A stretch of DNA of 64,000 nucleotides from Candidatus Rokuibacteriota bacterium (lineage in GTDB: Bacteria > Methylomirabilota > Methylomirabilia > Rokubacteriales > CSP1-6): NCBI GenBank assembly GCA_003221695.1, contig QHSX01000041.1:93486-157485 (forward strand), given 5' to 3'. Positions 2,052 through 47,697 of this stretch are shown in pieces; the first letter of the stretch is position 1, and the number at the start of each line of letters is the position of its first letter. The notes under the pieces were generated by a model, which was not told the DNA's origin, did not search any database, and was given only the letters and a program-made list of their open reading frames with translations. A program made the position numbers and the translations under genes.

Positions 2052-2831
2052 ATGAACGATCTGGCGCACGGCGTCCTGCCGCTCCGCGACAAGGTTTCAC
2101 CCGAAGAATGGGCCGTGCGCGTGGATCTTGCCGCGTGTTATCGACTCGTGGCCCACTACGGCTGGGAGGACCTGGTGTTCACGCACATCACGGCGCGCGT
2201 GCCTGGCACCGAGGACCAGTTCCTCATCAATCCGTACGGCATGTTCTTCGACGAGATCACGGCGTCGAGCCTGGTCAAGATCGATATTCACGGCAGCAAG
2301 GTCCAGGACTCGCCGTATCCGGTGAATCCGGCCGGCTTCGTCATCCACAGCGCGATCCACGCCGCGCGGCACGACGCCAGGTGTGTGCTCCACACCCACA
2401 CGCTGAACGGCGTGGCCGTCTCGACGCAGCGGGCGGGGCTGCTTCCCATCTCGCAGCATTCGATCTCCGTGCTCGCGAGCCTGGGCTACCACGACTTCGA
2501 GGGCCCGGCGCTGCGGGACGACGAAAAGCCGCGTCTGGTCGCGGACCTCGGCGACAAGACCTCGCTGGTGCTGCGCAATCACGGGCTCTTGACCGTGGGC
2601 CAGACGGTCGCCGAAGCGTTCGTCGCGATGTATTACCTGGAAACGTCCTGCGCGATCCAGGTGCGGGCGCAGTCCGGCGGAGGCGAATTGATTCCGGTTC
2701 CCAAAGAGGTCATCGAGAGCTCCTACGCGCAGCTCATGGCGGGACCCGGACGCCGCGGCAATCTGGGCGCGCTGGTGTGGCCCGGGCTGCTCCGGCGCCT
2801 CGATCGGCTCGATCCGTCCTACCGCGCCTGA
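2052..2831 (+). CDS. class II aldolase/adducin family protein
   Basis: 259-aa ORF. Conserved His-rich metal-site region (HTHT..., RNHGLLTVG) typical of L-fuculose-phosphate aldolase-like class II aldolases. Confidence 0.75.
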   Translation: MNDLAHGVLPLRDKVSPEEWAVRVDLAACYRLVAHYGWEDLVFTHITARVPGTEDQFLINPYGMFFDEITASSLVKIDIHGSKVQDSPYPVNPAGFVIHSAIHAARHDARCVLHTHTLNGVAVSTQRAGLLPISQHSISVLASLGYHDFEGPALRDDEKPRLVADLGDKTSLVLRNHGLLTVGQTVAEAFVAMYYLETSCAIQVRAQSGGGELIPVPKEVIESSYAQLMAGPGRRGNLGALVWPGLLRRLDRLDPSYRA

Positions 2832-2838
2832 CGCGCGG

Positions 2839-4554
2839 TCACGACCTCCGCGCGAGGGGGCCGCGCAGGAGGTGGCCCGGCAGCGCCCCGGTGGGCTTGC
2901 CGTCGCGCAGGACGATCTCGCCGTTCACGACCGTCGCGGAGATGCCGCGCGCCCGCTGCACGAGGCGCCGCGCCCCGGCCGGAAGGTCGTGCACCACCTC
3001 GGGCATCTCCGGCGCGATCCTCTCGGCGTCGAAGACGAGGAGGTCGGCCGCCAGCCCTTCCCGGATCAGGCCACGGTCCGCGAACCCCCAGTAGGTCGCG
3101 GGCTCGAAGCTCAGCATACGGACCGCCTGCTCGAGCGTGAACGCATGCTTCGCGCGCACCCAGTGGCTCAGCAGGTGCGTCTGGAGGGAGGCGTCCATGA
3201 TCTGCGAGACGTGCGCCCCGGAGTCTGAGAAGGTCACGACCGTGCGCGCGTGTTGCATCAGCTCGAGCGCGTGGTCCTGGTTCTCGTTGGCAATGGGTTG
3301 GAGGAAGAAGCGCTCCAGGCCCTTCTCGAGCGCAAGGTCGATCATGGCCTCGACCGGGTCCACGCCGCGCTCGCGCGCGATCTCGGCCACCGATCGGTGC
3401 GGCCCCTCGACCGTGTCGAAGACGAAGATCCATTCGTACGCGGCGGGCCGCGGCTCGGCTCCGATCGCACGGCGCTCCTCGCGCTCCCGCGCCGCCTCGA
3501 CGAGGCGACGGCGCACCTCGGGATCCCGCAGGCGCTGGCGCTGCTGGTCGAGCGGCAGGGCCCGCAGCTCCTTCCACGCCGGGAGCCGGTCGAACGGCAG
3601 ATTGGTCTTGAACGAGAGCACCACACTGAGCGCACGGCTGTGCACCTGCGCGAACATCCGGCCGCCTGCGGCGGCGGTCTCCTCGAGCAGGTCGAGGTAG
3701 ACGCGCCAGACCTCCGGGGCCTCCCGCCGGCTGAACAAGCCCCACGTCACGGGGCGTCCGGTCTCCACCGCGAGGTCGCGCAGCCGCACGTGGTAGTCCC
3801 GCAGCCCCTGGGGGTCGTGCGAGGTGCGGCCCACCTCTTCGCCCGCGAGCTCGAAGATGCCCGCGTTCATATCGCCCATCACGCCGACGAGCCGCCGGAC
3901 CTCCTCCCAGGTGGCGAGCCGGCTCGCGACGGGTCGCCGGTCGGGCGTCTCGTGACTCGGCGAGCGTGAGGTCGTGAAGCCGATGGCGCCGGCGCGGATC
4001 GCGTCACGCAGCTCGCGCTCCATCGCGCGGAGGTCGTCCTCGCCAGCCGGCTTCTCGAACGCCCGCTCGCTCATCACGTGGGTGCGCAGGGCCGAGTGAC
4101 CGATGTAACAGGCGTAGTTGATGCCCTTGGGCAGGGACGCGACGCGATCGAGGAACTCCGGGAACGTGGTCCACGTCCAGTCGATGCCGGCCTCCATCGC
4201 CTCGGCGGCGATGTCCTCGGCGCGCTCGAGGTTTCTCATGACGAGGTGCTTGTCGGAGGCGGCGCAGGGGGCGAGCGTGAATCCGCAGTTGCCCATCACG
4301 ACCGTGGTCACGCCGTGCCAGCAGGAGCAGGTGCCGAGCGGATCCCAGAAGACCTGGGCATCCATGTGCGTGTGCCCGTCCACGAAGCCGGGAGCCACCA
4401 CCTGGCCGTCCGCGTCGATGACCTCACGGGCGCGCTCCCGGACCCGGCCGATCGTGACGATGCGGCCGTGCCGCACGCCGACGTCGGCCCGGTAGCGGGG
4501 CATGCCGGAGCCGTCGATCACCACGCCGTTCTTGATCACCAGGTCGTACGCCAT
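2839..4554 (-). CDS. N-acyl-D-amino-acid deacylase (D-aminoacylase) family amidohydrolase
   Basis: The 678-aa track ORF was trimmed to the internal ATG at 4554 (MAYDLVIKNGVVIDG...). Motifs GFVDGHTHMD and MGNCGFTLAP are characteristic of D-aminoacylases. Confidence 0.8.
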   Translation of the reverse strand: MAYDLVIKNGVVIDGSGMPRYRADVGVRHGRIVTIGRVRERAREVIDADGQVVAPGFVDGHTHMDAQVFWDPLGTCSCWHGVTTVVMGNCGFTLAPCAASDKHLVMRNLERAEDIAAEAMEAGIDWTWTTFPEFLDRVASLPKGINYACYIGHSALRTHVMSERAFEKPAGEDDLRAMERELRDAIRAGAIGFTTSRSPSHETPDRRPVASRLATWEEVRRLVGVMGDMNAGIFELAGEEVGRTSHDPQGLRDYHVRLRDLAVETGRPVTWGLFSRREAPEVWRVYLDLLEETAAAGGRMFAQVHSRALSVVLSFKTNLPFDRLPAWKELRALPLDQQRQRLRDPEVRRRLVEAAREREERRAIGAEPRPAAYEWIFVFDTVEGPHRSVAEIARERGVDPVEAMIDLALEKGLERFFLQPIANENQDHALELMQHARTVVTFSDSGAHVSQIMDASLQTHLLSHWVRAKHAFTLEQAVRMLSFEPATYWGFADRGLIREGLAADLLVFDAERIAPEMPEVVHDLPAGARRLVQRARGISATVVNGEIVLRDGKPTGALPGHLLRGPLARRS

Positions 4555-4765
4555 CGCCCGCTCCTCCCGTCCGGGCCCGAGGGGCCACGCTTGTCGCCGT
4601 ATCGTACTCCGTTGTAGCGGGGGCCGCGAGGCCGGAACACACCGCGGGTGGCGTGCCGTGGGTACGGGGCGGCTCCGTCTAGCCAAGAGCCATCGCGACG
4701 TTGAAACGAGGCTCCCGAGGGACAACCTCGACCTCGAGAGCCTGCGCCCCTGTGTCAGGAATGAC

Positions 4766-5140
4766 TTACTGAACCGGCGGCGGGGGCGGTGGCGGAGGTA
4801 GCGGTGCCGGGTTGGGGATCCAGATCCACTGATACGCGCTGTAGATCCCGTCTCCATGCAGCTCGTACCGACCATTCGGGTACTGGATCACGTTGGGGTA
4901 CGCGTGTGCGCGCTGGACCACGACAACCGGGGCCGGTGCCACATACACGGGCCGTTCGACGACGACCTCACGAACGTGGGGCCGCGGGTGAAGCAGGGGA
5001 CCGACGAGCTGGTTGAACACCGCGAACGAGGCCAGCCCGAGAGCCACATTGGTGCCAGTGCTCCCGCCCGCATAGGCCGCCGGGGCAACCGCGCCGACCA
5101 TCAGGGCGACCGCTGCTGCTATCGCGACGAGCGTGCGCAT
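4766..5140 (-). CDS. small secreted proline-rich protein (hypothetical)
   Basis: N-terminal signal peptide (MRTLVAIAAAVALMVGAVAPAAYA) and a C-terminal poly-Pro tract (PLPPPPPPPPVQ). Shares the motif VYVAPAPVVVVQ with the divergent neighbour. Confidence 0.45.
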   Translation of the reverse strand: MRTLVAIAAAVALMVGAVAPAAYAGGSTGTNVALGLASFAVFNQLVGPLLHPRPHVREVVVERPVYVAPAPVVVVQRAHAYPNVIQYPNGRYELHGDGIYSAYQWIWIPNPAPLPPPPPPPPVQ

Positions 5141-5316
5141 CGTGTGTCCCTCCCTTCCTGTCGCGTTAGACGCCGGGGCCGCAACGTTGATTTACCGCAC
5201 CCGATTCCGCCGACCCGAGGTCGCCACGGTGTCAACGCCGGGAGGCGGTCGTTCGTCTAACGGCTGAGATGAAGGTCGTTCAGCCCTCGTCCGTCAAATG
5301 CCTAGCAAGGGCGGGT

Positions 5317-5661
5317 ATGAAAAGGTCAGCGATGGCTTCAGTCCTGGCGCTCGCGCTGCTTCTCGTGCCTGTAGCGCCGGGTCTCGCGTGGCACGGGCAT
5401 TCCGGCGTTCGGACGGGTGTCTTCGTCGGTGTCGGCCCCGCGTTCTGGTGGGGTCCGTACTGGTGGCACTACCCGCCGCCGTACTACGTGTACGCTCCGC
5501 CGCCGGTCGTCGTCCAGGAGCCGCCGGTCTACATACAGCAGGAGCCGCCCACCCCGGCGACGCAGTCGTACTGGTACTACTGCGGGAGCGCCAAGGCCTA
5601 TTACCCGACCGTCCCGGCGTGCCCTGAGCCGTGGCTCAAGGTTCCTCCGAGGTCCGAGTGA
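5317..5661 (+). CDS. small secreted aromatic/proline-rich protein (hypothetical)
   Basis: Start placed at the internal Met (MKRSAMASVLALALLLVPVAPGLA signal peptide). W/Y/P-rich mature part with a C-terminal two-Cys segment YYCGSAKAYYPTVPACPEPW. Confidence 0.45.
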   Translation: MKRSAMASVLALALLLVPVAPGLAWHGHSGVRTGVFVGVGPAFWWGPYWWHYPPPYYVYAPPPVVVQEPPVYIQQEPPTPATQSYWYYCGSAKAYYPTVPACPEPWLKVPPRSE

Positions 5662-10234: not shown

Positions 10235-11962
10235 CTACTGCGAAACCGCGAAGACCCAGATCACGCCACCCTGCGGCACGTCCTTCTCCCAGCCGAGAAG
10301 ATTGGAGAGGAGCCCCTGCTGGAAGGCCGGGTCGACGCCCCAGCCCGACACGACGCTGATGTACTGTGTGCCGTTGACCGCGAAGGATGACGGCGGCGCG
10401 ACGATGCCGGAGTTCGTGCGGAACTGCCACAGCACCTTCCCGCTGGACGCGTCGAAGGCGCGGAATTGCCGGTCATTCGTCCCGCCCGTGAAGACGAGCC
10501 CGCCGGCGGTGGTCAGCATCCCACCCCAGGCCATCGAGTCGGGGAACTGGTGACTCCACGCCCGCTTCACCCCGTTGAGGTCCCAGGCCTGGATCTGGCC
10601 GAAGTACTTCGCGCTCTTGTCGACGGCGAAGCCGATGTCGGGGATGTCCACGCCCGTCCACCATTGCCCGGCGACGTACTGCTGGACCTTGCCTTCCATG
10701 AACCCGCAGTGGTTGTCGTTGGCCGGGATGAAGAGGCGCCCCATCTTGGGGTTGTAGGCGGCCGAAGGCCAGTCCTTGCCGCCCCAGAGCGACGGACAGA
10801 AGTCGGCGCGCTTGCCGGTCTTCGGAATCCGCTCGGCGTAGTATTCGGGACGGCCGGTCTTCGGATCGATGCTCCGGAACACGTTTTGCTTGACGTACGC
10901 ATTGGCGGAGACGAACCCGATCCGTTCGCGGCTCCGCTCCAGCAGGTACAGATAGCCGTTGCGCGCCGGGTGGACCAGTCCTTTGACGATGCGCCCGTCC
11001 TTCTGATAGTCGAGGACGAGCGGCGCGTCCGGCTCGTCCCAGTCCCACGATTCGTTCCACTGGTACTGGAAGTGGCCCTTCATCTTGCCCGTCTCGGGCT
11101 CGATGGCGACGGTTGACGCGGTGTAGAGGTTGTCACCCTGGCGCTGATCCCCGAACCAGGGCGAGGCGTTTCCGGTGCCCCAGTAGGTGAGGTTCAGCTC
11201 GGGATCATAGGTACCCGTCAGCCAAACCGACGCGCCGCCCCGTTGCCAGGTGTCGCCAGACCACGTGTCGTGCCCGGGCTCGCCCGGGCCGGGAATCGTG
11301 TGCGTCTTCCACGCGGGCTCGCCGCTCCGAGCGTCGAAGGCCTGCACGAAGCCTCGGACGCCGAACTCTCCGCCGGAGACGCCGACCATGACCTTGCCCT
11401 TCGCGATGAGCGGGGCGAGCGTCATGTAGTAGCCGGTGTGGTAGTCCTCGACCTTCTTTTCCCATGCGACCTTTCCGGTCCTGGCGTCGAGGGCGACCAG
11501 GAAGCAGTCCAGGCTCGCCAGGTACACCTTGTCGTCGTACAGGGCGATCCCGCGGCTCGTGTTATGAAGCGCCTTGAAATCCTCGGGCAATTCCCGCTTG
11601 TAGCGCCAGAGGAACTTGCCCGTCTTCGCCTCGAGGGCGATGACCTGAGCGTACGGGGTCACGACGAACATCACGCCGTTGTTGACGATGGGCGGTGCTT
11701 CGTGGCCCGAGTCCACCCCCGTGGAGAAGGCCCAGACGGGAGTCAACTTCTTCACGTTCCCGGGGGTGATCTGCCCCAGGGGACTGTAGCCCCACCCTTG
11801 ATAGTTGCCGCGGATCTGCAACCAGTTCTCGGGTTCCGGCTTGACCAGCCGTTGCTCGGTGACCGGGCTGTAGCTGCCCTGAGCCACCGCCATCCCCGGC
11901 AGCATCAGAAGGCCGAGGACAGCTGCGAGCGCCAGTAGGGTTCTGCTTGTCTTCACGATCAT
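10235..11962 (-). CDS. PQQ-dependent dehydrogenase, methanol/ethanol family (periplasmic quinoprotein)
   Basis: Trimmed to the ATG at 11962 (MIVKTSRTLLALAAVLGLLMLPGMAVA signal), preceded by GGAGGA. Eight-bladed PQQ propeller with W-motifs that aligns by eye to MxaF/XoxF/ExaA, including the active-site segment SWDWDEPD. Confidence 0.9.
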   Translation of the reverse strand: MIVKTSRTLLALAAVLGLLMLPGMAVAQGSYSPVTEQRLVKPEPENWLQIRGNYQGWGYSPLGQITPGNVKKLTPVWAFSTGVDSGHEAPPIVNNGVMFVVTPYAQVIALEAKTGKFLWRYKRELPEDFKALHNTSRGIALYDDKVYLASLDCFLVALDARTGKVAWEKKVEDYHTGYYMTLAPLIAKGKVMVGVSGGEFGVRGFVQAFDARSGEPAWKTHTIPGPGEPGHDTWSGDTWQRGGASVWLTGTYDPELNLTYWGTGNASPWFGDQRQGDNLYTASTVAIEPETGKMKGHFQYQWNESWDWDEPDAPLVLDYQKDGRIVKGLVHPARNGYLYLLERSRERIGFVSANAYVKQNVFRSIDPKTGRPEYYAERIPKTGKRADFCPSLWGGKDWPSAAYNPKMGRLFIPANDNHCGFMEGKVQQYVAGQWWTGVDIPDIGFAVDKSAKYFGQIQAWDLNGVKRAWSHQFPDSMAWGGMLTTAGGLVFTGGTNDRQFRAFDASSGKVLWQFRTNSGIVAPPSSFAVNGTQYISVVSGWGVDPAFQQGLLSNLLGWEKDVPQGGVIWVFAVSQ

Positions 11963-22437: not shown

Positions 22438-23754
22438 TCAGGCGCGGGCGGCCGGCGCGGAGCGGGACACCACGTCGACGGCCTCCGCGAACGCCGTGAG
22501 CGTCCGGGCTACGTCGTCGTCGCCATGGGCGAGCGTGACGTAGATCTTCGACACGCCTTTCACGACTCCCCGTCGCAGGCACTCCGCGTTGAAGGCCTTG
22601 AGGCGCGCGCCGTCCGCCGTCAGCATCGCGCGGTAGTCGGTGATCGGCCGGTCCGTGAAGACGACGTCGAAGACCGCGGTCTCCCCGATCACCTGCGCCT
22701 CCAGGCCGGACTTCCGGACGATCTCGGCCAGGCCGTCACGCAGCGCACGTCCGATCCGCTGGAGCTGCGCGTACGCGCCGGGCTTCCGCAGCTCGGCGAG
22801 CGTGGCGAGCCCCGCGACCGCGGCGATCGGGTTGCCGCTGAGCGTGCCGACCTGCGCGACGAACTCCGGCGTGCCTTCCAGCCGCGGGTCGAAGGCGCGC
22901 ATGATCTCCCGCCGGCCGCAGACCGCGGCGAGCGGGAAGCCGCCGCCGATGATCTTGCCGTAGGCGGCCAGATCGGGAACGACGCCGTAGTATTCCTGGG
23001 CGCCGCCGTAGGCGAAGCGGAACCCGGTGACGACCTCGTCGAAGATCAGCGGGATCCCGTGGCGTCGCGTGAGCGTGCGCAGCCCCTCGAGGAAGCCCCG
23101 CTGGGGCGGGATGAGCCGCTGGAACGGCTCGACGATGACCGCGGCGAGCTCGTCGGCGTACACCGCGAGGAGCGCCTCGACGGTGGCGAGGTCGTTGTAG
23201 GGGGCGATCAGCACCTCGCCCTCGAGGACGTGCGGGATGCCGGCCGAGTCCGGCGTGGCCGCGGGAAAGGCCTTCGGCGACCTCGGCGCCGCGCTCATCA
23301 GCGCGTAGTCGTGGCCGCCATGATAGCCGCCTTCGAACTTCATGATCTTGTCGCGCTTCCGATAGGCGCGCGCCACGCGAAGGGCGAAGAACGTCGCCTC
23401 GGTCCCGGTCGACGTGAAGCGCACCTGCTCGGCGCACCGCACCGCGCGGCAGAGCTCGTCGGCCAGGTTCACGATGGGCTCGTTCACGAGGAAGTAGGTG
23501 GTGCCGTGCTCGAGCGCCTCTCGCACCGCGGCGACCACCGCCGGGTGTGCGTGGCCCAGGATCAACGGGCCGGAGCCCATGAGGTAGTCGATGTACTCGC
23601 GCCCGCTCACGTCGTAGAGCTTGGATCCCGCGCCGCGCCTGACGACGAACGCGAGATCGTCCGGGAACCACGACGACCCGAGGACGCCGCCGGGCAGCGT
23701 GCGGGCCGCGGTTTCGAGCATGCGCTTCTCTTCGTCCGATCGCGAGCGGTCCAT
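22438..23754 (-). CDS. class III (PLP-dependent) aminotransferase, glutamate-1-semialdehyde 2,1-aminomutase-like
   Basis: 438 aa with GSGPLILGHAHPAVV, the FDEVVTGFR PLP-lysine region and YGKIIGGGFP, the canonical GSA-aminomutase / class III aminotransferase motifs. Confidence 0.8.
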   Translation of the reverse strand: MDRSRSDEEKRMLETAARTLPGGVLGSSWFPDDLAFVVRRGAGSKLYDVSGREYIDYLMGSGPLILGHAHPAVVAAVREALEHGTTYFLVNEPIVNLADELCRAVRCAEQVRFTSTGTEATFFALRVARAYRKRDKIMKFEGGYHGGHDYALMSAAPRSPKAFPAATPDSAGIPHVLEGEVLIAPYNDLATVEALLAVYADELAAVIVEPFQRLIPPQRGFLEGLRTLTRRHGIPLIFDEVVTGFRFAYGGAQEYYGVVPDLAAYGKIIGGGFPLAAVCGRREIMRAFDPRLEGTPEFVAQVGTLSGNPIAAVAGLATLAELRKPGAYAQLQRIGRALRDGLAEIVRKSGLEAQVIGETAVFDVVFTDRPITDYRAMLTADGARLKAFNAECLRRGVVKGVSKIYVTLAHGDDDVARTLTAFAEAVDVVSRSAPAARA

Positions 23755-23898
23755 GTCGTGTCTTCCTCCCGGGCGATCGCGCGCCCTCTCGTAGCCGCCA
23801 GCTTACAAGCTTCCGCGTGCCCGCGCGAGGCCGATCGAGTTCTTGAACCGCCCGCTCGGGCCACCTACACTGGCGCCACCCCGGCACCGGAGGGTGGC

Positions 23899-24365: not shown

Positions 24366-26018
24366 ATGACACGACAGTCCAGCTATTCGCGTCGGCAGTT
24401 CTTTCGCGTCGGCGCCGCCGGCGTGGCGGCCACCGTGGTCACGGCACCGCGCCGCGGCCGCGGCGTCGCCCACGCGGCCGTCCAGGGTCCGCCGCCCCTC
24501 AACACGGCGCCGCGGGTCTTGCGCAAGCCGCCACTGGACGAGCTCGGACGCATCGCGAAGTCCTACGATCTGGATCTGAGCACCGAAGACCTGGCATCCT
24601 TCCGCACCCTGATGGATGGCGTCCTCGCGTCCTACCGGCGCCTGGATCAGTTCGCGGAGCCGACGCTGCCCGTCAAGTATGCTCGCAACGCGGGCTCCCG
24701 CCCGCCCGCGTCCGAGAACCGGCTCAACGCGTGGTACTGGAAGTGCTCGATCAAGGGCGCGCCCTCGGGACCACTGGCGGGTAAGAAGATCGCGATCAAG
24801 GACAACGTGTGCGTGGCCGGGATCCCGATGATGAACGGCTCCGCCGTCCTCGAAGGGTACGTGCCCGACGTCGACGCGACGATCGTCACCCGGATCCTCG
24901 ACGCCGGCGGCGAGATCGTCGGCAAGGCCGTCTGCGAGCACCTCTGCTTCTCCGGGGGCAGCCACACCTCCGACACCGGGCCGGTGCTGAACCCGCACGA
25001 TCCGAAGCGCTCCGCCGGCGGCTCCTCGAGCGGGAGCGCGGCCCTCGTGGCCGCCGGAGAGTGCGATATGGCGATCGGTGGCGACCAGGGCGGGTCGATC
25101 CGGATCCCCAGCTCGTATTCGGGCGCCGTCGGCCACAAGCCGACGTACGGTCTCGTCCCGTACACGGGCGTCTTCCCGATCGAGCTGACGCTCGATCACA
25201 CGGGCCCCATCGCGCGCACGGCGGCCGACTGCGCCGCACTCCTCGAGGCGATCGCGGGCCCCGACGGCCTCGATCCCCGACAGTCGGGCGCGGTCCGCAC
25301 CGAGCCCTACACGAAGAAGCTCACCGGCGATGCCCGCGGCGTTCGGATCGGCATCGTGAGGGAGGGCTTCGGCTGGCCGAACTCCGAGCCCGACGTGGAC
25401 AAGATGGTGCGAGACGCTGGCGCGCGTCTCACCCGCGCTGGCGCCGCCGTGACCGAGGTCTCCGTTCCCCTGCATCGTGACGGGATTCACATCTGGAACG
25501 CGATCGCGGTCGAGGGCGCCACGATGCTGATGGTCGCCGGCAACAGCATGGGGACGAACTGGAAGGGACACTACACGACCTCGCTTCTGGACTTCTACGG
25601 CCGGAGCCGTCGGGCCCGGGCGAACGACCTCTCCGAGACGGTGAAGCTGGTGATCCTGCTCGGCCAGTACATGCAGGACAACTATCACGGCCGGTACTAC
25701 GCGAAGGCGCAGAACCTCGCCCGGGTGCTCCGGGCGGCGTATGACGAGGCCCTCGGGAGCGTCGATCTTCTCCTGATGCCGACGCTGCCCCTGAAAGCGA
25801 CGCTGCTGCCGGCACCGAACGCGAGCCGCGAGGAATACGTCGCCCGGGCGCTCGAGATGATCACGAACACCGCGCCCTTCGACGTCACCGGGCACCCCGC
25901 CGTCACGGTCCCCGCGGGGATGTCCGCGGGACTTCCCGTCGGAATGATGCTGATCGGCCGGCACTGGGAGGATGCGACGGTGCTGCGCGCCGCCGACGCC
26001 TTCCAGAAGCTCACTTAG
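24366..26018 (+). CDS. amidase-signature family amidase, Tat-exported
   Basis: Tat signal (SRRQFFRVGAAGVAATVVTAP). Amidase signature GGSSSGSAALVAAG and the Ser-cisSer-Lys triad context. Confidence 0.85.
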   Translation: MTRQSSYSRRQFFRVGAAGVAATVVTAPRRGRGVAHAAVQGPPPLNTAPRVLRKPPLDELGRIAKSYDLDLSTEDLASFRTLMDGVLASYRRLDQFAEPTLPVKYARNAGSRPPASENRLNAWYWKCSIKGAPSGPLAGKKIAIKDNVCVAGIPMMNGSAVLEGYVPDVDATIVTRILDAGGEIVGKAVCEHLCFSGGSHTSDTGPVLNPHDPKRSAGGSSSGSAALVAAGECDMAIGGDQGGSIRIPSSYSGAVGHKPTYGLVPYTGVFPIELTLDHTGPIARTAADCAALLEAIAGPDGLDPRQSGAVRTEPYTKKLTGDARGVRIGIVREGFGWPNSEPDVDKMVRDAGARLTRAGAAVTEVSVPLHRDGIHIWNAIAVEGATMLMVAGNSMGTNWKGHYTTSLLDFYGRSRRARANDLSETVKLVILLGQYMQDNYHGRYYAKAQNLARVLRAAYDEALGSVDLLLMPTLPLKATLLPAPNASREEYVARALEMITNTAPFDVTGHPAVTVPAGMSAGLPVGMMLIGRHWEDATVLRAADAFQKLT

Positions 26019-26035: not shown

Positions 26036-27739
26036 TTAGAGGCGCAGGGCGAGCCGCTTGCTGACGCGCCCGCCCTGGATGTGGTTGTTGACGTAACCCT
26101 TCGACTGGTTGCGCCCGGGATCTCCGGCGACCACGATGCCGATCCATGCGGCTCGCGGAAACACGCGCACGGGCCGGTCGGGATCGCCGGACCCCGCGTA
26201 CTCGGGCGGAAGCGCGCCGGACTCCGCCAGCGCCTTCAGGCTGAACGCCGTGCTCCCGAGATGCCACGCGTACCTCTCCACCTCGCGCGCGGGGATCGTG
26301 ACGTTCTCGTGGAGGTAGGCGCGCACGTCGTCCTTCGTCCACCCGTCGGCCGCGATGACCCGCGCGATGCTCGGGCCGATGACCAGCAGTGGCTGCCACC
26401 GCGCGTACTTCATCCCCGTGAACGACCAGTAGGCGCACGCCCGCCCGAAGACGTCGGCCAGGACCTGGACGTGGTCGAGCGCGCGCGTGCCTGCGGTGTA
26501 GATCGGCGGGCTCGAGCTCACCACGCTCTGCACCGTCACGACGCCGTCGTCCTTGGCGAACCCCTGGTCCTGCCCGAAGGTCGTCCAACCGATCTCGGCG
26601 GCCGCGTCCTCGTCCTCGGCGAGCGCCACGTTGAAGGTGGCGGCGATGCTTCCCTTGTCGCCGGCGCCCGGTGGAATGCGGAGCCCGGCGACGTTCCGGA
26701 GATAGAGACGCAAGAACCGGCCGAGGCTCGTGTTGGCCTGCCGGCCGACGCGCATGACGCCCTGGCCGCGGTTGAAATCGAGCGCCTTCGCGACGGCGCC
26801 ACTCACGATGATGAGCGGCTCCCAGCCCGGGGTCGATCCCGCGTCCTGCACCCTGAACTCCGGTTCGGCGATCGCCTCGACCACCGCGATCAGAAGGGGC
26901 ATGTACTCCGGACGGCAGCCGGCCATCACGCCGTTGACCGCGATACTCCAGACGGTGGCGGCGCGATTCTCGGGCGAGAGGGTCCCGATCACCTCGGCGG
27001 GCGACCGATCCGCGAACTCGAGAAAGCGCTCCACGCGCGGAATCGTGGGAGGGATCACCGGCAGTCCGTCGGTCCACAGGCGCGCGTAGAAGAACTCCTG
27101 GACCTGGTCGAGCGTCCCGCGAAAGACGACGTCGCGGGCGGCGGGCTCGACGGCGCGGGTCAGCGCCGTCTCCACGGGCCGCGCCAAGCCGTCGACGATC
27201 GCGTCGATGAGCCGCTCGACCTTGGCGCGCACCGTCTCGGGGCCATCGGTCATCGGCACGCCGGGATACTCGGCGATCGGGAGCGCCGGCATGCCGACGC
27301 CCTTGGCCACGACGGCGGCCTGCTCCCGGAACGGCGTGGTGACGATCGAGACGCTCGGGACACCGGCCCGCTCGGCGATCGCCGCGGCCCGCAGCACGGC
27401 GGGCGTGCAGCTCCCTCAGGCGCCGACGGCGGAGATGACGGCGTCGCAGCCGTGCTTGCGGAGCAGGGCCGGGAGGGTCGCCGCCAGCTCCGCTTCGTCG
27501 CGGCCGTGGGTCGAGCCGAGCGTCTCGTAGTCGACGAACCGAACACCGGGATAGCGCTGCGCGAGCGCGCGCCGGATGAGCGGGAAGATCTCCTCGCCCT
27601 TGAAGAGGTAATCCCACAGCTCACCGATCGTCTTGCCGGCGAGATCGGGACTGCGCGAGGCGAGCGCCGTCGGGGCGGCCGCGGACGGCGCGAGCGGCCA
27701 GACGACTTCGTAGACGGGCTCTCGATCGGCGGTCGTCAT
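26036..27739 (-). CDS. UGSC-motif selenoprotein (probable UGSC family); in-frame TGA at 27416..27418 read as selenocysteine
   Basis: Track ORFs 27416..28099 and 26036..27397 are in the same frame, separated only by a TGA and 6 codons with no start codon. The joined product reads ...HGCDAVISAVGA-U-GSCTPAVLRAAAIAERAGVPSVSIVTTPF.... Protein-like composition contrasts with the Arg/Gly-rich alternative frame. Start ATG at 27739. Confidence 0.65.
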
Positions 27740-27743
27740 GCTC

Positions 27744-28505
27744 TCACTCCCGGTAGTCCAGGCCGGCCGCGGCGAACCGCGACTTGAAGGCGGGTCGCGC
27801 CAGGAAGGCGATGAACGCGCGCGCCGCCTCCGGCACGGCACTGCGCGCGGCGAGGCCGGCCGAGTAGGTGGTGATCTTTTGCAGGTCTTTCGGCAACGGA
27901 CCCACCAGGGCGACGCCCTTGACGGGGACGATCTCGCTGATCTGGTGCGCGACCAGCTCGACCTCCCCCTTGGCGACCAGCTCCGCCGGGTAGCCCCCAG
28001 GCACGAGCCGGGTCTTCGCCTTGACCGCCTCGGCGATGCCCAGCCGCTCGAGCACGCCCGCGAAATGGATCCCGCTGGTGCCGCCCTGGGCCGGGTCAAC
28101 GTAGACGAGGGACCTCGCGGCGCGCAGGGTCTGCGTGAGGGCCTCGGGCGTGGAGATGTCGGGCTTCGGCGCGCCCTCGCGCACCGCGATGCCCATTCCC
28201 GTTCGGGCGATGTCCGTCCTGGTGCCGGGGATGACGGCCCCCTGACGCGTCATCTCGTCGATGGCGACATCGCTCATGATGACGACGTCCGCGCTCTCGC
28301 CGGCCGTCAGCTTCTGGCGGATGGCGCCGACCGTCCCGAAGGCGAGCGCCACGGTGTGCCCCGTCTCCCGACGGAACTCTTCGGCCAGATCGGTCACGAT
28401 CGCCCTCACCGCGCCCGCGCTCAGGACCCGGACCTCCGCCGCCTGGGCGTGGTCCACGCCCGCCCCCACCGCCACGGCGATCAAGAGCGCACCGAGCCTC
28501 CGCAT
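27744..28505 (-). CDS. ModA-like periplasmic substrate-binding protein (PBP2 molybdate/tungstate-binding family), no cognate permease nearby
   Basis: Start at internal Met 28505 with a signal peptide (MRRLGALLIAVAVGAGVDHAQA). Bilobal ModA-like sequence (VLSAGAVRAIVTDLAEEF..., GGTSGIHFAGVLERLGI). Confidence 0.65.
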   Translation of the reverse strand: MRRLGALLIAVAVGAGVDHAQAAEVRVLSAGAVRAIVTDLAEEFRRETGHTVALAFGTVGAIRQKLTAGESADVVIMSDVAIDEMTRQGAVIPGTRTDIARTGMGIAVREGAPKPDISTPEALTQTLRAARSLVYVDPAQGGTSGIHFAGVLERLGIAEAVKAKTRLVPGGYPAELVAKGEVELVAHQISEIVPVKGVALVGPLPKDLQKITTYSAGLAARSAVPEAARAFIAFLARPAFKSRFAAAGLDYRE

Positions 28506-28625
28506 CAGGGTCCTCCCCTTCGAGGGTACGTCGCCTTGCGCACGGCGTTGTCGACGAGAGCACCGGGCGGCGCCGACACTATCGCAAACGTTCTCGCGAC
28601 GCAATGCGGGCTCGCTGAACCCCCG

Positions 28626-29381
28626 TCAGGCGATCTTGATGATCCCCGGCTCGACCGGCTTGAACCGGTCGGCGACCAACGGATCGTGGCCCGCGACGAT
28701 CAGCCGCTCGGCGCCGGCGAGGGCGTGGATCGTCTCGAAGGCCGCGAGCATCTCGGGCAGGCTCGTGACGATCTGGACGGGCTGGCGCGTCTCCACGTTG
28801 CGGTAGAAGTGCGCGGCATCGGAGGTGAGCACGACCGTCCCGCGTCGGGTCTGGACCGTGACGATCTGGAGCCCCGCGGTGTGGCCGCCGACGCGATGGA
28901 CGCCGATCCCGGGGAGCACCTGGCGGTCGCCGTCGATGATCCGGACGCGGTTCGCATAGGTCAGCGTCACCAGCCGCGCGAGCGCCCCGACGTTCGCCGA
29001 TTGGCGGAACGCCGGCGCGTGGCCGTACGGCCCAGTCCAGAAGGCCACCTCGTCCTGCTGGATCCAGTACTCCGCGCCGGGGAACAGACTGTGCCCGGCC
29101 CAGTGGTCGTAGTGGAGGTGCGTGATGAGCGCCACGGGCACGTCCGCCGGCTTCACGCCCGCGCGCTCGACCATCGCCGCCGGGCTCACGTAGCCCCGGA
29201 TCCCGCGCTCCCGCGCGTCGTCGTCGAGGAACCCGGTGTCCACGAGGATCGGATGAGCGCCACCGAGGATCAGCCAGACGTAGTAGTGGAGCGTGATCGG
29301 CTCGTGCGACGCCTCGCGGTAGAAGAACTGGCAGGCCGTCGTGTCCCGCTCTCCGTACTTGAGCGCGTACACCTCGTACAT
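28626..29381 (-). CDS. MBL-fold metallo-hydrolase (N-acyl-homoserine-lactonase-like)
   Basis: Metal-binding motif HLHYDHWAGH plus downstream H and D ligands, and a size typical of AiiA-like lactonases. Confidence 0.7.
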   Translation of the reverse strand: MYEVYALKYGERDTTACQFFYREASHEPITLHYYVWLILGGAHPILVDTGFLDDDARERGIRGYVSPAAMVERAGVKPADVPVALITHLHYDHWAGHSLFPGAEYWIQQDEVAFWTGPYGHAPAFRQSANVGALARLVTLTYANRVRIIDGDRQVLPGIGVHRVGGHTAGLQIVTVQTRRGTVVLTSDAAHFYRNVETRQPVQIVTSLPEMLAAFETIHALAGAERLIVAGHDPLVADRFKPVEPGIIKIA

Positions 29382-29467
29382 GGGTCACCTCGCTCGCGTG
29401 GTCGTCCTTCGTCCGGCTCGATTGTATGGCAAGCTGTGGCAGCCCAACACGAGGGGGTCGACGGCTC

Positions 29468-30271
29468 ATGAGCGGACGACTGAGCGGCAAAATCGCGATC
29501 GTGACCGGCGCCGGTTCGCGGGGCCCCGGCCTCGGGAACGGCAAGGCGACCGCCCTGCTCTTCGCCCGGGAGGGGGCGAAGGTCCTGTGCGCCGATCAGA
29601 TGAAGGAGCGCGCCGAGGAGACCGTCGGGTTGATCCGGGGCGCTGGGGGTGAGGCGTTCGCATTCACCGCCGATGTGACACGTGCCGCCGAGTGCCGGGC
29701 GATGGTCAAGATCGCGGTCGAGCGCTGGGGGGGCCTCGACATCCTCCACAACAACGTCGGCATCGAGTCGCGCAAGGATCTCCTCGAGACGCCGGAAGAC
29801 GAGTGGGACCGCGTGATGGCCGTCGACCTCAAGTCCATGTTCCTCGCCACGCAGGCGGCGGTGCCGGCGATGCTGAGCCGCGGCGGTGGCGCGGTCGTCT
29901 GCGTTTCCTCCATCGCGGCGCTGCGGGGCCACGGACGCACCGCGTACGCCACGGCGAAGGCCGGCGTCATCGGGTTCGTCCGCTCCATCGCGGTCCAGCT
30001 CGGTCCCAAGGCCATTCGCGTCAACGCCATCGCGCCGGGTCCCGTGTGGACGCCGATGGTGGAGGACCTCGGTCCCGACGCCCGCGAGCGCCGGCGGCGC
30101 GCCAGTCCCCTCGGCACCGAGGGGACCGGCTGGGATGTGGCCTGGGGCGCCGTCTACCTCGCGAGCGACGAGGCGCGCTGGGTCACGGGCCAGACACTCA
30201 TCATCGACGCCGGGCTCACGCTGACGACCCGCGAGGGTTCGCTCGGCTTGCCGTCGCCAGGAGGTCCGTGA
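29468..30271 (+). CDS. SDR-family oxidoreductase
   Basis: TGAGSRGPGLG cofactor motif variant, NNAG, and the catalytic S...YxxxK (YATAKAGV). Confidence 0.85.
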   Translation: MSGRLSGKIAIVTGAGSRGPGLGNGKATALLFAREGAKVLCADQMKERAEETVGLIRGAGGEAFAFTADVTRAAECRAMVKIAVERWGGLDILHNNVGIESRKDLLETPEDEWDRVMAVDLKSMFLATQAAVPAMLSRGGGAVVCVSSIAALRGHGRTAYATAKAGVIGFVRSIAVQLGPKAIRVNAIAPGPVWTPMVEDLGPDARERRRRASPLGTEGTGWDVAWGAVYLASDEARWVTGQTLIIDAGLTLTTREGSLGLPSPGGP

Positions 30272-30308
30272 GCGGAGAGAGCCGGAGAGAAAGGAGCGAG
30301 ACCAGGTC

Positions 30309-31238
30309 ATGAAGATCGGGTTCATCGGCCTCGGCACCATGGGGCGTCATATGGCGTCCAACCTGATCCGGGCGGGCCACGCGCTGGTGGTCCACGACGT
30401 GCGACGGGAGGCGGCGGCACCCCACCGCGACGCGGGCGCCGGCTGGGCCGACACGCCCCGCGCGGTGGCGGAGGCGACCGACGTGGTATTCACGTCGCTG
30501 CCCGGGCCTCCCGAGGTCGAGGCGGTCGCGCTCGGCGAGCAGGGGCTTCTCACAGGGCTCGCGCCGGGCAAGGTCTACTTCGATCTGACGACCAACGCGC
30601 CCGCCCTCGTCCGCCGGATCCACGCGGGCTTCACGGCGCGGGGGATCCATATGCTGGACGCTCCGGTGAGCGGCGGCCCGCGCGGGGCCGAGACGCGGCG
30701 GCTCGCCCTCTGGGTCGGGGGCGACGAGGCCGTCTTCAAGCGCTACAAGGCGGTGCTCGATGCCATCGGTGATCAGCCCTACTATGTCGGGCCGATCGGC
30801 GCGGGCTCGATCGCGAAGCTCGTCCACAACTGCGCGGGCTATGTCATCCAGACCGCGCTGGCCGAGGTCTTCACGTTGGGAGTCAAGGCGGGTGTCGATC
30901 CGCTCGCGCTGTGGAAGGCCGTCCGCCAGGGCGCGGGCGGGCGACGCCGCACGTTCGACGGCCTGGCCGAGCAGTTCCTACCGGGTCGGTTCGAGCCGGC
31001 GGCGTTCGCGCTGCGCCTGGCGCACAAGGACGTCACCCTGGCGGTCGGCCTCGCCCGCGAGCATCGAGTGCCGATGCGGCTCGCCACGATCACGCTCGAG
31101 GAGCTCACCGAGGCGCTCAACCGTGGCTGGGGCGAGCGCGACTCGCGGGTTGCGATGCTCCTTCAGGAGGAGCGCGCCGGTGTCGAGATTCGCGTGCCCG
31201 ACGCCGCGATCCGTCAAGCGCTCGAGCTCGGGGGATGA
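30309..31238 (+). CDS. NAD(P)-dependent 3-hydroxyisobutyrate/2-hydroxy-3-oxopropionate reductase-family dehydrogenase
   Basis: N-terminal GFIGLGTMG Rossmann motif and conserved DAPVSGG and KLVHN motifs of the HIBADH family. Confidence 0.85.
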   Translation: MKIGFIGLGTMGRHMASNLIRAGHALVVHDVRREAAAPHRDAGAGWADTPRAVAEATDVVFTSLPGPPEVEAVALGEQGLLTGLAPGKVYFDLTTNAPALVRRIHAGFTARGIHMLDAPVSGGPRGAETRRLALWVGGDEAVFKRYKAVLDAIGDQPYYVGPIGAGSIAKLVHNCAGYVIQTALAEVFTLGVKAGVDPLALWKAVRQGAGGRRRTFDGLAEQFLPGRFEPAAFALRLAHKDVTLAVGLAREHRVPMRLATITLEELTEALNRGWGERDSRVAMLLQEERAGVEIRVPDAAIRQALELGG

Positions 31239-47187: not shown

Positions 47188-47697
47188 TCAGGCGTCGCCT
47201 CGGTAGGTGACGGTCAGCTCCGGGCCGTTGCGGAGAGTCTGATACACGACGCAGTAGCGTTCGGTCAGCTCGAGCAGCTTCTGCCGGGCCTCGGGACCGG
47301 CCTCGGTCTCGAGCGTGATCAATAGCCGGATGTGTCTGAAGCCGACCGAAGCGTCCTTCGCCAGGCCGAGCGTGCCTCGAAAGTCGAGGTCACCCTCGGC
47401 GGTGACGCGACCCCCACGCAACTCTATGCCGAGGGATGTGGCGACCGCCGAGAGCGTCACACCGGCGCACGCCACGAGCGCTTCGAGAAGCATGTCGCCG
47501 GAGCACGCCAACGTCCCGGTGCCTCCCGTCGCGGGATGGAGGCCGGCCTCGACGAGCGCGCGCGCGGTGGCGACCCGGCAGGAAACGCCGTCGCCGAGCC
47601 GGCCCTCTGCCTTGAGCGTCACGAGCGCCGCAGCCGGGTCGTCGCGATAGCGTTGCTTGATGGGCGCCTGGAGTGCGCGAAGGTCGTCGCGGTTCAT
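47188..47697 (-). CDS. OsmC/Ohr-family peroxiredoxin-like protein
   Basis: 169 aa with an OsmC fold pattern and the two conserved Cys (GVSCRV... and ERYCVVYQTL). Confidence 0.75.
   Translation of the reverse strand: MNRDDLRALQAPIKQRYRDDPAAALVTLKAEGRLGDGVSCRVATARALVEAGLHPATGGTGTLACSGDMLLEALVACAGVTLSAVATSLGIELRGGRVTAEGDLDFRGTLGLAKDASVGFRHIRLLITLETEAGPEARQKLLELTERYCVVYQTLRNGPELTVTYRGDA

Follow-up and report, generated by a model that had tools for sequence, protein, structure and literature searches.

The UGSC family (PF24696 and NF041046) was first described in the Sargasso Sea and Global Ocean Sampling (GOS) selenoproteomes. UGSC-containing proteins were among the most abundant families in the GOS data, with 255 selenocysteine (Sec) sequences versus 21 cysteine (Cys) sequences, and were commoner in the non-marine samples (PMC2398784). 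A 2026 review lists UGSC together with NF041046 (PMC13188914). Here we describe a UGSC gene from a member of Candidatus Rokuibacteriota (assembly GCA_003221695.1, contig QHSX01000041.1), found in a stretch of 64,000 nucleotides that we refer to as the window. Positions 26036..27739 on the minus strand are one 567-codon selenoprotein gene, a long form of this known but uncharacterised family. Like the described members, the protein carries the same domain with U-G-S-C at the same position. As in the GOS data, its Sec forms outnumber its Cys forms, and Cys homologues of about 573 amino acids carry the NCBI name 'UGSC family (seleno)protein'. Unlike the short form of the family, it has an extra C-terminal domain of about 380 residues without a Pfam family.

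The minus-strand frame runs from an ATG at 27739..27737 through 107 sense codons to a TGA at 27418..27416, and from there through 459 sense codons to a TAA at 26038..26036. Counting the TGA as Sec108, this gives 567 codons followed by the stop codon. The N-terminus at this ATG, MTTADREPVYEVVWPL, aligns to the N-termini of full-length homologues, and a GGGAG at 27747..27751 on the same strand, 7 nt 5' of the ATG and abutting the stop codon of the upstream gene, may act as its Shine-Dalgarno sequence. Translation of the whole interval meets a single internal stop, in the motif AVGA*GSC. A sequence-only reading of the window had placed two open reading frames (ORFs), 27416..28099 and 26036..27397, in one frame split by this TGA and six sense codons. 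It had taken the nominal Met at 27397 for a GTG inside a continuous frame, and had proposed a 567-residue product containing AVGA-U-GSC; the ORF list, the sequence and the translation bear out each of these statements. The six codons between the TGA and the internal GTG are GGG AGC TGC ACG CCC GCC. The TGC among them (27407..27409, minus strand) encodes Cys111, the second residue of the pair in the U-G-S-C (UxxC) motif and presumably its resolving Cys.

The coding signal does not change at the TGA. Codon-position GC is equal on the two sides, with third-position values (GC3) of 0.89 upstream and 0.92 downstream. In the upstream part, synonymous and non-synonymous changes relative to the closest relatives are about equally frequent, for example 26 versus 19 against the homologous locus labelled L002. 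When all TGA codons of the window were scanned, that at 27416..27418 alone was flanked by coding signal on either side without a restart. No further TGA-split genes were found in the 64 kb, where same-frame neighbouring ORFs each restart with their own start codon. Two other candidates with high GC3 on both sides were set aside: the TGA at 47188-47190 (minus strand) is a normal two-gene junction with an ATG restart four codons later, and that at 10551 (plus strand) is antisense to a minus-strand gene and has low GC1, which marks it as an artefact.

Against Pfam, the UGSC profile PF24696 matches residues 11-185 of the translated protein (27185..27709, minus strand) over profile positions 1-170 of 172, with 106.7 bits (gathering score 25) and an E-value of 1.8e-30. 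The match places the TGA in the middle of one domain. A homologue search covering 5.8 billion proteins returned two kinds of relatives. Those 60-99% identical are about 450 amino acids long, cover 80% of the query, and are cut exactly at the TGA; those about 50% identical are about 572 amino acids long with 99% coverage, and two of them carry the NCBI name "UGSC family (seleno)protein". The full-length homologues align from end to end and read G-x-G-x-C-G-T-C-T-P-A-V, with Cys in the column of the TGA. The 88 listed Sec genes have U-G-(S/A/G/L)-C as their motif, and the Cys forms, which are encoded for example in Novosphingobium flavum and Chelativorans alearense, have C-G-T-C.

We also scanned genomes at one per species. 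At least 572 stretches matched, and the 80 best of them gave 78 loci. All 78 have a TGA at the Sec codon, with conserved protein sequence on either side of it. The carriers belong to at least six lineages (Rokubacteria/Methylomirabilota, Betaproteobacteria, Falsiroseomonas, Rhodospirillaceae, Chloroflexi/Dehalococcoidia and Acidobacteriota) and include the cultured betaproteobacteria Polynucleobacter kasalickyi and P. rarus. The closest among the listed loci are from Rokubacteria/Methylomirabilota, at 74-85% identity. An in-frame UGA standing over the Cys of homologues, with conservation on both flanks, is the pattern of a Sec/Cys pair. The central claim of the sequence-only reading, that a UGSC selenoprotein gene is split here by a Sec-encoding TGA, is upheld by the Pfam match across the codon, by Cys homologues that align through it, and by the genome scan, in which no locus lacks a TGA at that site. 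We regard the selenoprotein assignment as almost certain.

A pseudogene, or a sequencing or assembly artefact, would mean that only the 453-residue ORF, or nothing, is made. Gene callers do give a 453-residue ORF starting from GTG 27397, and the Sec machinery is absent from the window. The TGA at the identical codon in 78 of 78 loci from several phyla, with the protein conserved on both sides, argues strongly to the contrary. So does its presence in all of three metagenome assemblies of this gene that are independent of one another and differ at only 4-7 of 1704 nt. Furthermore, the GTG lies within the conserved stretch CTPAVLRA, and a start there would lose Cys111 and half of the UGSC domain. 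We consider this explanation extremely improbable.

Bacterial Sec insertion sequence (bSECIS) elements have been defined by a loop of 3-9 nt, a stem of 4-16 bp, a G at loop position 1 or 2, a spacing of 16-37 nt and a minimum free energy of at most -7.5 kcal/mol (PMC13188914). A hairpin of this type lies at 27387..27404 on the minus strand, at a spacing of 17 nt from the UGA. Its 5' arm is GCCCGC (27404..27399), its loop CGUGCU (27398..27393) and its 3' arm GCGGGC (27392..27387), and the same nucleotides double as codons for T-P-A-V-L-R-A. With a 6-nt loop, a 6-bp stem, this spacing and -12.3 kcal/mol, it falls within the published limits for all four properties. A gap-free alignment of 86 distinct sequences around the TGA gives the conserved structure GCCCGC-CGUGNU-GCGGGC, in which the five inner pairs are retained in 98-100% of sequences and the outermost pair in 85%. 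Changes in the stem are five wobbles from C-G to U-G and a single compensatory replacement, in L061, of G-C by U-A.

The contrast with Cys forms (five loci from the metagenome scan and five exact-protein look-ups) is more telling. At least five of the six pairs are present in 84 of 85 Sec genes versus 1 of 11 Cys-form rows, the rest of which have two to four pairs. Arg is encoded by CGG in 82 of 85 Sec genes versus 1 of 10 Cys genes, and the codon before that of Arg ends in G in 83 of 85 versus 2 of 10. CCC and CGG are the fixed codons of Sec genes, and this holds in AT-rich Polynucleobacter too (L067, L069, L072), where the neighbouring codons end in A or U. Because Sec and Cys genes encode the same peptide, P-A-V-x-R-A, this difference in codon choice is the strongest argument for the hairpin. 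Judged from these sequences, the predicted hairpin at 27387..27404 is a SECIS-type element specific to the Sec forms. Like the bSECIS consensus and the element of E. coli fdhF, it is intracoding, and its 6-bp GC stem carries an apical loop of 6 nt whose second and third positions are G-U. It differs from fdhF in that its sequence is unrelated and its lower stem varies between lineages, and SelB binding is here a prediction.

The sequence-only reading had proposed another stem, GCACG-CCCGC-CGUGC. That stem is present, beginning 7 nt downstream of the UGA. It is not the one that is conserved, and it lies outside the bSECIS limits, with a spacing of 12 nt, a loop (CCCGC) that begins with CC, and -6.3 kcal/mol. 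Its outer pairs occur in only 58-83% of homologues, counts no better than those of column shuffles, and its conservation does not exceed what is expected from the amino-acid sequence. The two stems overlap and are mutually exclusive. A search of the 64 kb with Rfam at gathering thresholds returned zero matches.

The Sec machinery itself was found beside orthologues of the gene. With the E. coli proteins as queries, tblastn places selA and selB no more than 6 kb from the UGSC gene in about 18 proteobacterial loci (Betaproteobacteria, Rhodospirillaceae, Falsiroseomonas); mostly they lie just upstream of it and are transcribed divergently. ARAGORN adds a tRNA-Sec gene (anticodon tca) in 11 of these loci. 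To illustrate, L007 carries tRNA-Sec at 1079-1174, selB at 2445-4331, selA at 4345-5646, and the UGSC gene from 6001; similar arrangements occur in L013, L015, L026, L028, L037, L049, L050, L056, L063 and L074. One locus only, L032, also contains selD (2025-2960). As tRNA-Sec, selB and selA stand directly beside the long-form UGSC gene, the arrangement suggests that the UGSC protein ranks among the main products for which Betaproteobacteria and Alphaproteobacteria use their Sec machinery. Within Methylomirabilota, a metagenome-assembled genome (MAG) has been reported with 63 predicted selenoproteins (PMC13188914).

Two further observations concern the surroundings of the sel genes. Neighbour clusters 8 and 14, which have no Pfam match, were discarded as genes: they fall inside the coordinates of selA on the opposite strand, and are therefore probably antisense ORFs. 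A gene for an MnmA-type tRNA 2-thiouridylase (cluster 13; L044:4973-6133, minus strand, and 11 other loci) lies a few kb from the UGSC/sel cluster in these 12 proteobacterial loci. The product of such an enzyme, 2-thiouridine, is the precursor of 2-selenouridine, and the linkage could be meaningful or coincidental.

Low-level read-through of UGA by Cys-tRNA or Trp-tRNA is known in bacteria, which lends some plausibility to the alternative that the TGA is decoded as Trp, Gly or Cys, either by an alternative code or by near-cognate read-through. TGA is, on the contrary, the commonest stop in the window, terminating 26 of 39 well-supported ORFs, the adjoining upstream gene among them, and residue 108 aligns to the redox Cys of homologues. 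The tRNA-Sec, selA and selB genes beside orthologues, and a downstream hairpin that fits the SelB-binding model, also speak for Sec, and decoding as a standard amino acid is most unlikely. The reading that we prefer is a single long-form UGSC gene in which UGA108 is decoded as Sec by way of a SECIS inside the coding sequence, and we hold it to be very probably correct. The product would be a 567-residue cytoplasmic selenoprotein, with UGA codon 108 recoded by SelB and tRNA-Sec recruited by the hairpin 17 nt downstream.

Several observations count against this single-gene, Sec-decoding reading. Searches of the 64-kb window by tblastn with E. coli SelA, SelB and SelD found none of the three genes, and ARAGORN found no tRNA gene there and hence no tRNA-Sec. 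Sec decoding in the genome's own case is consequently deduced from relatives and from the phylum. The 76-nt fold at 27350..27425 has a stability within the ordinary range for its composition (z = 0.73), a value that makes thermodynamics alone uninformative at 69% GC. Support for the hairpin comes mostly from conservation and codon choice, with only one clear compensatory change. Finally, NCBIfam NF041046 (UGSC_fam, 147 positions) scores the protein at 63.8 bits, under the equivalog cut-off of 125, because this model describes the 147-residue short form. Other members behave in the same way, with 47.6 bits for the first one scanned (P0060) and a best E-value of 2.8e-15 among the 53 that match. 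By these scores the protein belongs to a long-form subfamily and is no equivalog of the short UGSC protein.

In public gene calls the gene appears as two products of 107 and 453 amino acids, each matching PF24696, just as the sequence-only reading had expected of standard gene callers. Public contigs that contain the gene number at least 23. The best database matches are likewise mostly truncations of about 450 amino acids. The gene and most of its closest relatives are thus split at the Sec codon in public annotation. One might suppose from this that there are truly two genes, or a programmed termination-reinitiation, and that polypeptides of 107 and 453 residues associate; each fragment alone does match PF24696 in the precomputed annotation. 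Bacterial Sec insertion is inefficient, so that a truncated 107-residue by-product is probably made, which also counts in favour of two polypeptides. Against this supposition, the Cys homologues are single chains, and no start codon or Shine-Dalgarno-like sequence lies between the TGA and the GTG. The SECIS-type hairpin is restricted to TGA forms, and in relatives the gene lies close to sel genes.

Structure prediction bears on the same question. The AlphaFold2 model of a 52%-identical Cys homologue (pLDDT 91.7, pTM 0.92) depicts the UGSC domain as alternating beta-alpha units, with the C-x-x-C between the strand at 97-103 and the helix at 108-121. By this model the domain is of a Rossmann-like alpha/beta type, and U-x-x-C would sit where a strand ends and the helix after it begins. 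To break the chain at the TGA would accordingly, in the model, cut one alpha/beta domain where a strand passes into the next helix. Two associating polypeptides are in our judgement a very improbable account of the locus, and a single selenoprotein chain is preferred.

The C-terminal domain of about 380 residues (residues 190-567; 26039..27172, minus strand) has neither a Pfam match nor a solved structural relative. At E <= 1e-3, Foldseek recovered no PDB structure, and a profile run on PDB sequences yielded no relative and one match at chance level (E 0.74). The domain nevertheless defines a large family of 3978 representative clusters at E <= 1e-3. It occurs as a standalone protein in P0187, P0245 and P0266 (349-380 amino acids) and as a tandem duplication in P0212, P0235 and P0244 (714-741 amino acids), in each case with no UGSC domain and no Pfam match. 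Many of its Arg residues are invariant or nearly so, as is Cys275 (nearly invariant) in the sequence G-C-R-P-E-Y. A "UGSC/Unknown_1" fusion was noted in 2008 (PMC2398784); 'Unknown_1' may correspond to the C-terminal domain described here.

Immediately upstream of the selenoprotein gene, and co-oriented with it, lies a gene for an SBP_bac_11 solute-binding protein (27744..28604, minus strand; PF13531, E 6e-41). Its TGA stop is 4 nt before the selenoprotein ATG, a spacing from which co-transcription is probable. Further upstream is a gene for a metallo-beta-lactamase (MBL)-fold protein (28626-29384, minus strand), followed on the plus strand by genes for a short-chain dehydrogenase/reductase (SDR; 29363-30271) and a 3-hydroxyisobutyrate-dehydrogenase-like protein (30225-31238). 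On the other side are a convergent amidase gene (24366-26018, plus strand) and a class-III aminotransferase gene (22438-23802, minus strand). Across the family, a same-strand adjacent gene for TctC or SBP_bac_5 accompanies 36 of the 71 genes with readable flanks. In the loci from Rokubacteria/Methylomirabilota, TctA is upstream in L004-L006, and SBP_bac_5 is downstream in L003, L005 and L006. The annotated neighbours as a group are solute-binding proteins, transporter subunits, amidase, aminotransferase, SDRs and thiol-redox proteins, and the Cys-form genes are surrounded by thiolase, MaoC, CoA-transferase and PrpD genes. This genomic context fits a substrate-processing enzyme.

Thiol genes recur nearby, with thioredoxin-reductase-like genes in 17 loci, glutaredoxin (Grx)-domain genes in 14 and glutathione S-transferase (GST) genes in 13. 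The first of these encode a Pyr_redox_2 flavoprotein of about 300-320 amino acids found near both Sec and Cys forms (L007:1260-2219, minus strand, and 16 other loci). In Actinacidiphila it adjoins the Cys-form gene (L084:2775-3686, minus strand). This flavoprotein is a candidate reductant for the U/C-x-x-C centre.

The Chloroflexi MAG JACPQD01, from groundwater, contains at least 29 different paralogues with the Sec-TGA. A contig often carries several of them, and most have an SBP_bac_5 gene as a neighbour (loci L008-L012, L016, L018, L021, L022, L024, L025, L027, L030, L034-L036, L039, L040, L045, L047, L058 and L061). The bin derives from a co-assembly and may mix strains. These paralogues alone would approach the largest reported bacterial selenoproteomes, of 57-63 genes.

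Among known proteins, the family also recalls those of the selenoprotein B type (PrdB, GrdB, GrdF and GrdH; PF07355), in which Sec acts in reductive C-N bond cleavage with thiol recycling. In D-proline reductase the U-x-x-C motif attacks a carbon of the substrate, ends as a selenenylsulfide, and is reduced by thiols. The PrdB model matches 31 of 54 family members, with a best E-value of 8.6e-6, and the GrdB, GrdF or GrdH models match 14-20. When the family is aligned by hhalign to a proline-reductase read from GOS, Sec falls on Sec and Cys on Cys (E 0.0049, 49 columns). The resemblance thus consists of these coinciding columns, the recurrent weak profile matches, and a shared pattern, 'D-x-V-hydrophobic run, U-x-x-C, ..., E-x-x-(G/K)-(I/V)-P-(T/S)-V'. 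The matches cover only about 50-100 residues around Sec. Unlike the protein described here, selenoprotein B has an N-terminal part that our family lacks, it is unrelated to the C-terminal domain found here, and its hosts are amino-acid-fermenting Clostridia rather than Rokubacteria, Betaproteobacteria and Chloroflexi of soil and groundwater. From the alignments we infer that the UGSC domain may be a distant relative of the region around Sec in selenoprotein B.

Taken with the neighbouring uptake genes, this likeness allows a tentative model of function. Sec108 and Cys111 would form a U-x-x-C redox centre in which Sec acts as nucleophile or reductant on a small imported solute, the solute would be bound by the arginine-rich C-terminal domain, and the resulting selenenylsulfide would be re-reduced by a thiol system. 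We regard such a PrdB-like, substrate-processing, solute-linked role as possible and by no means probable. A general thiol-redox or antioxidant role, as of a thioredoxin (Trx)-like oxidoreductase, would leave the protein a selenoprotein without a solute-linked reductase activity. It accords with the Trx-like fold and redox function once suggested for UGSC (PMC2398784), with the UxxC motif, and with the Grx, GST and thioredoxin-reductase-like neighbour genes; it too is a conceivable, rather unlikely account.

The solute-linked model has a number of points to answer. For no member of the UGSC family is a function supported by experiment (PMC13188914). The similarity to PrdB and GrdB is weak, at 12-15 bits against cut-offs of 65-800 (TIGR04483, TIGR01917, TIGR01918) and with an hhalign probability of 7%, and no gene for PrdA, GrdA, GrdC, GrdD, GrdE or a pyruvoyl subunit occurs among the annotated neighbours. 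Because those cut-offs are not reached and the partner genes are absent among the annotated neighbours, the protein is not a member of the PrdB/GrdB family. In addition, the neighbours in the window (MBL-fold, SBP_bac_11, amidase) are not common to the closest relatives, L001-L006.

The result is the recovery of a mis-annotated selenoprotein gene, and does not overturn current understanding. It provides several handles on UGSC function, namely a SECIS specific to the Sec forms, the linkage to sel genes in Proteobacteria, the adjacency to uptake genes, and the Sec-on-Sec alignment with selenoprotein B. A broader and still less assured proposal is that long-form UGSC proteins make up a large, substrate-diversified family of Sec-dependent reductases, mechanistically related to PrdB/GrdB and acting on solutes delivered by the adjacent tripartite tricarboxylate transporter (TTT) or ATP-binding cassette (ABC) uptake systems; we think it rather doubtful. 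If true, the 380-residue C-terminal domain would be a new substrate-binding or catalytic fold. As selA, selB and tRNA-Sec lie directly beside them, long-form UGSC genes might then also be the main reason that many Betaproteobacteria keep their Sec machinery.

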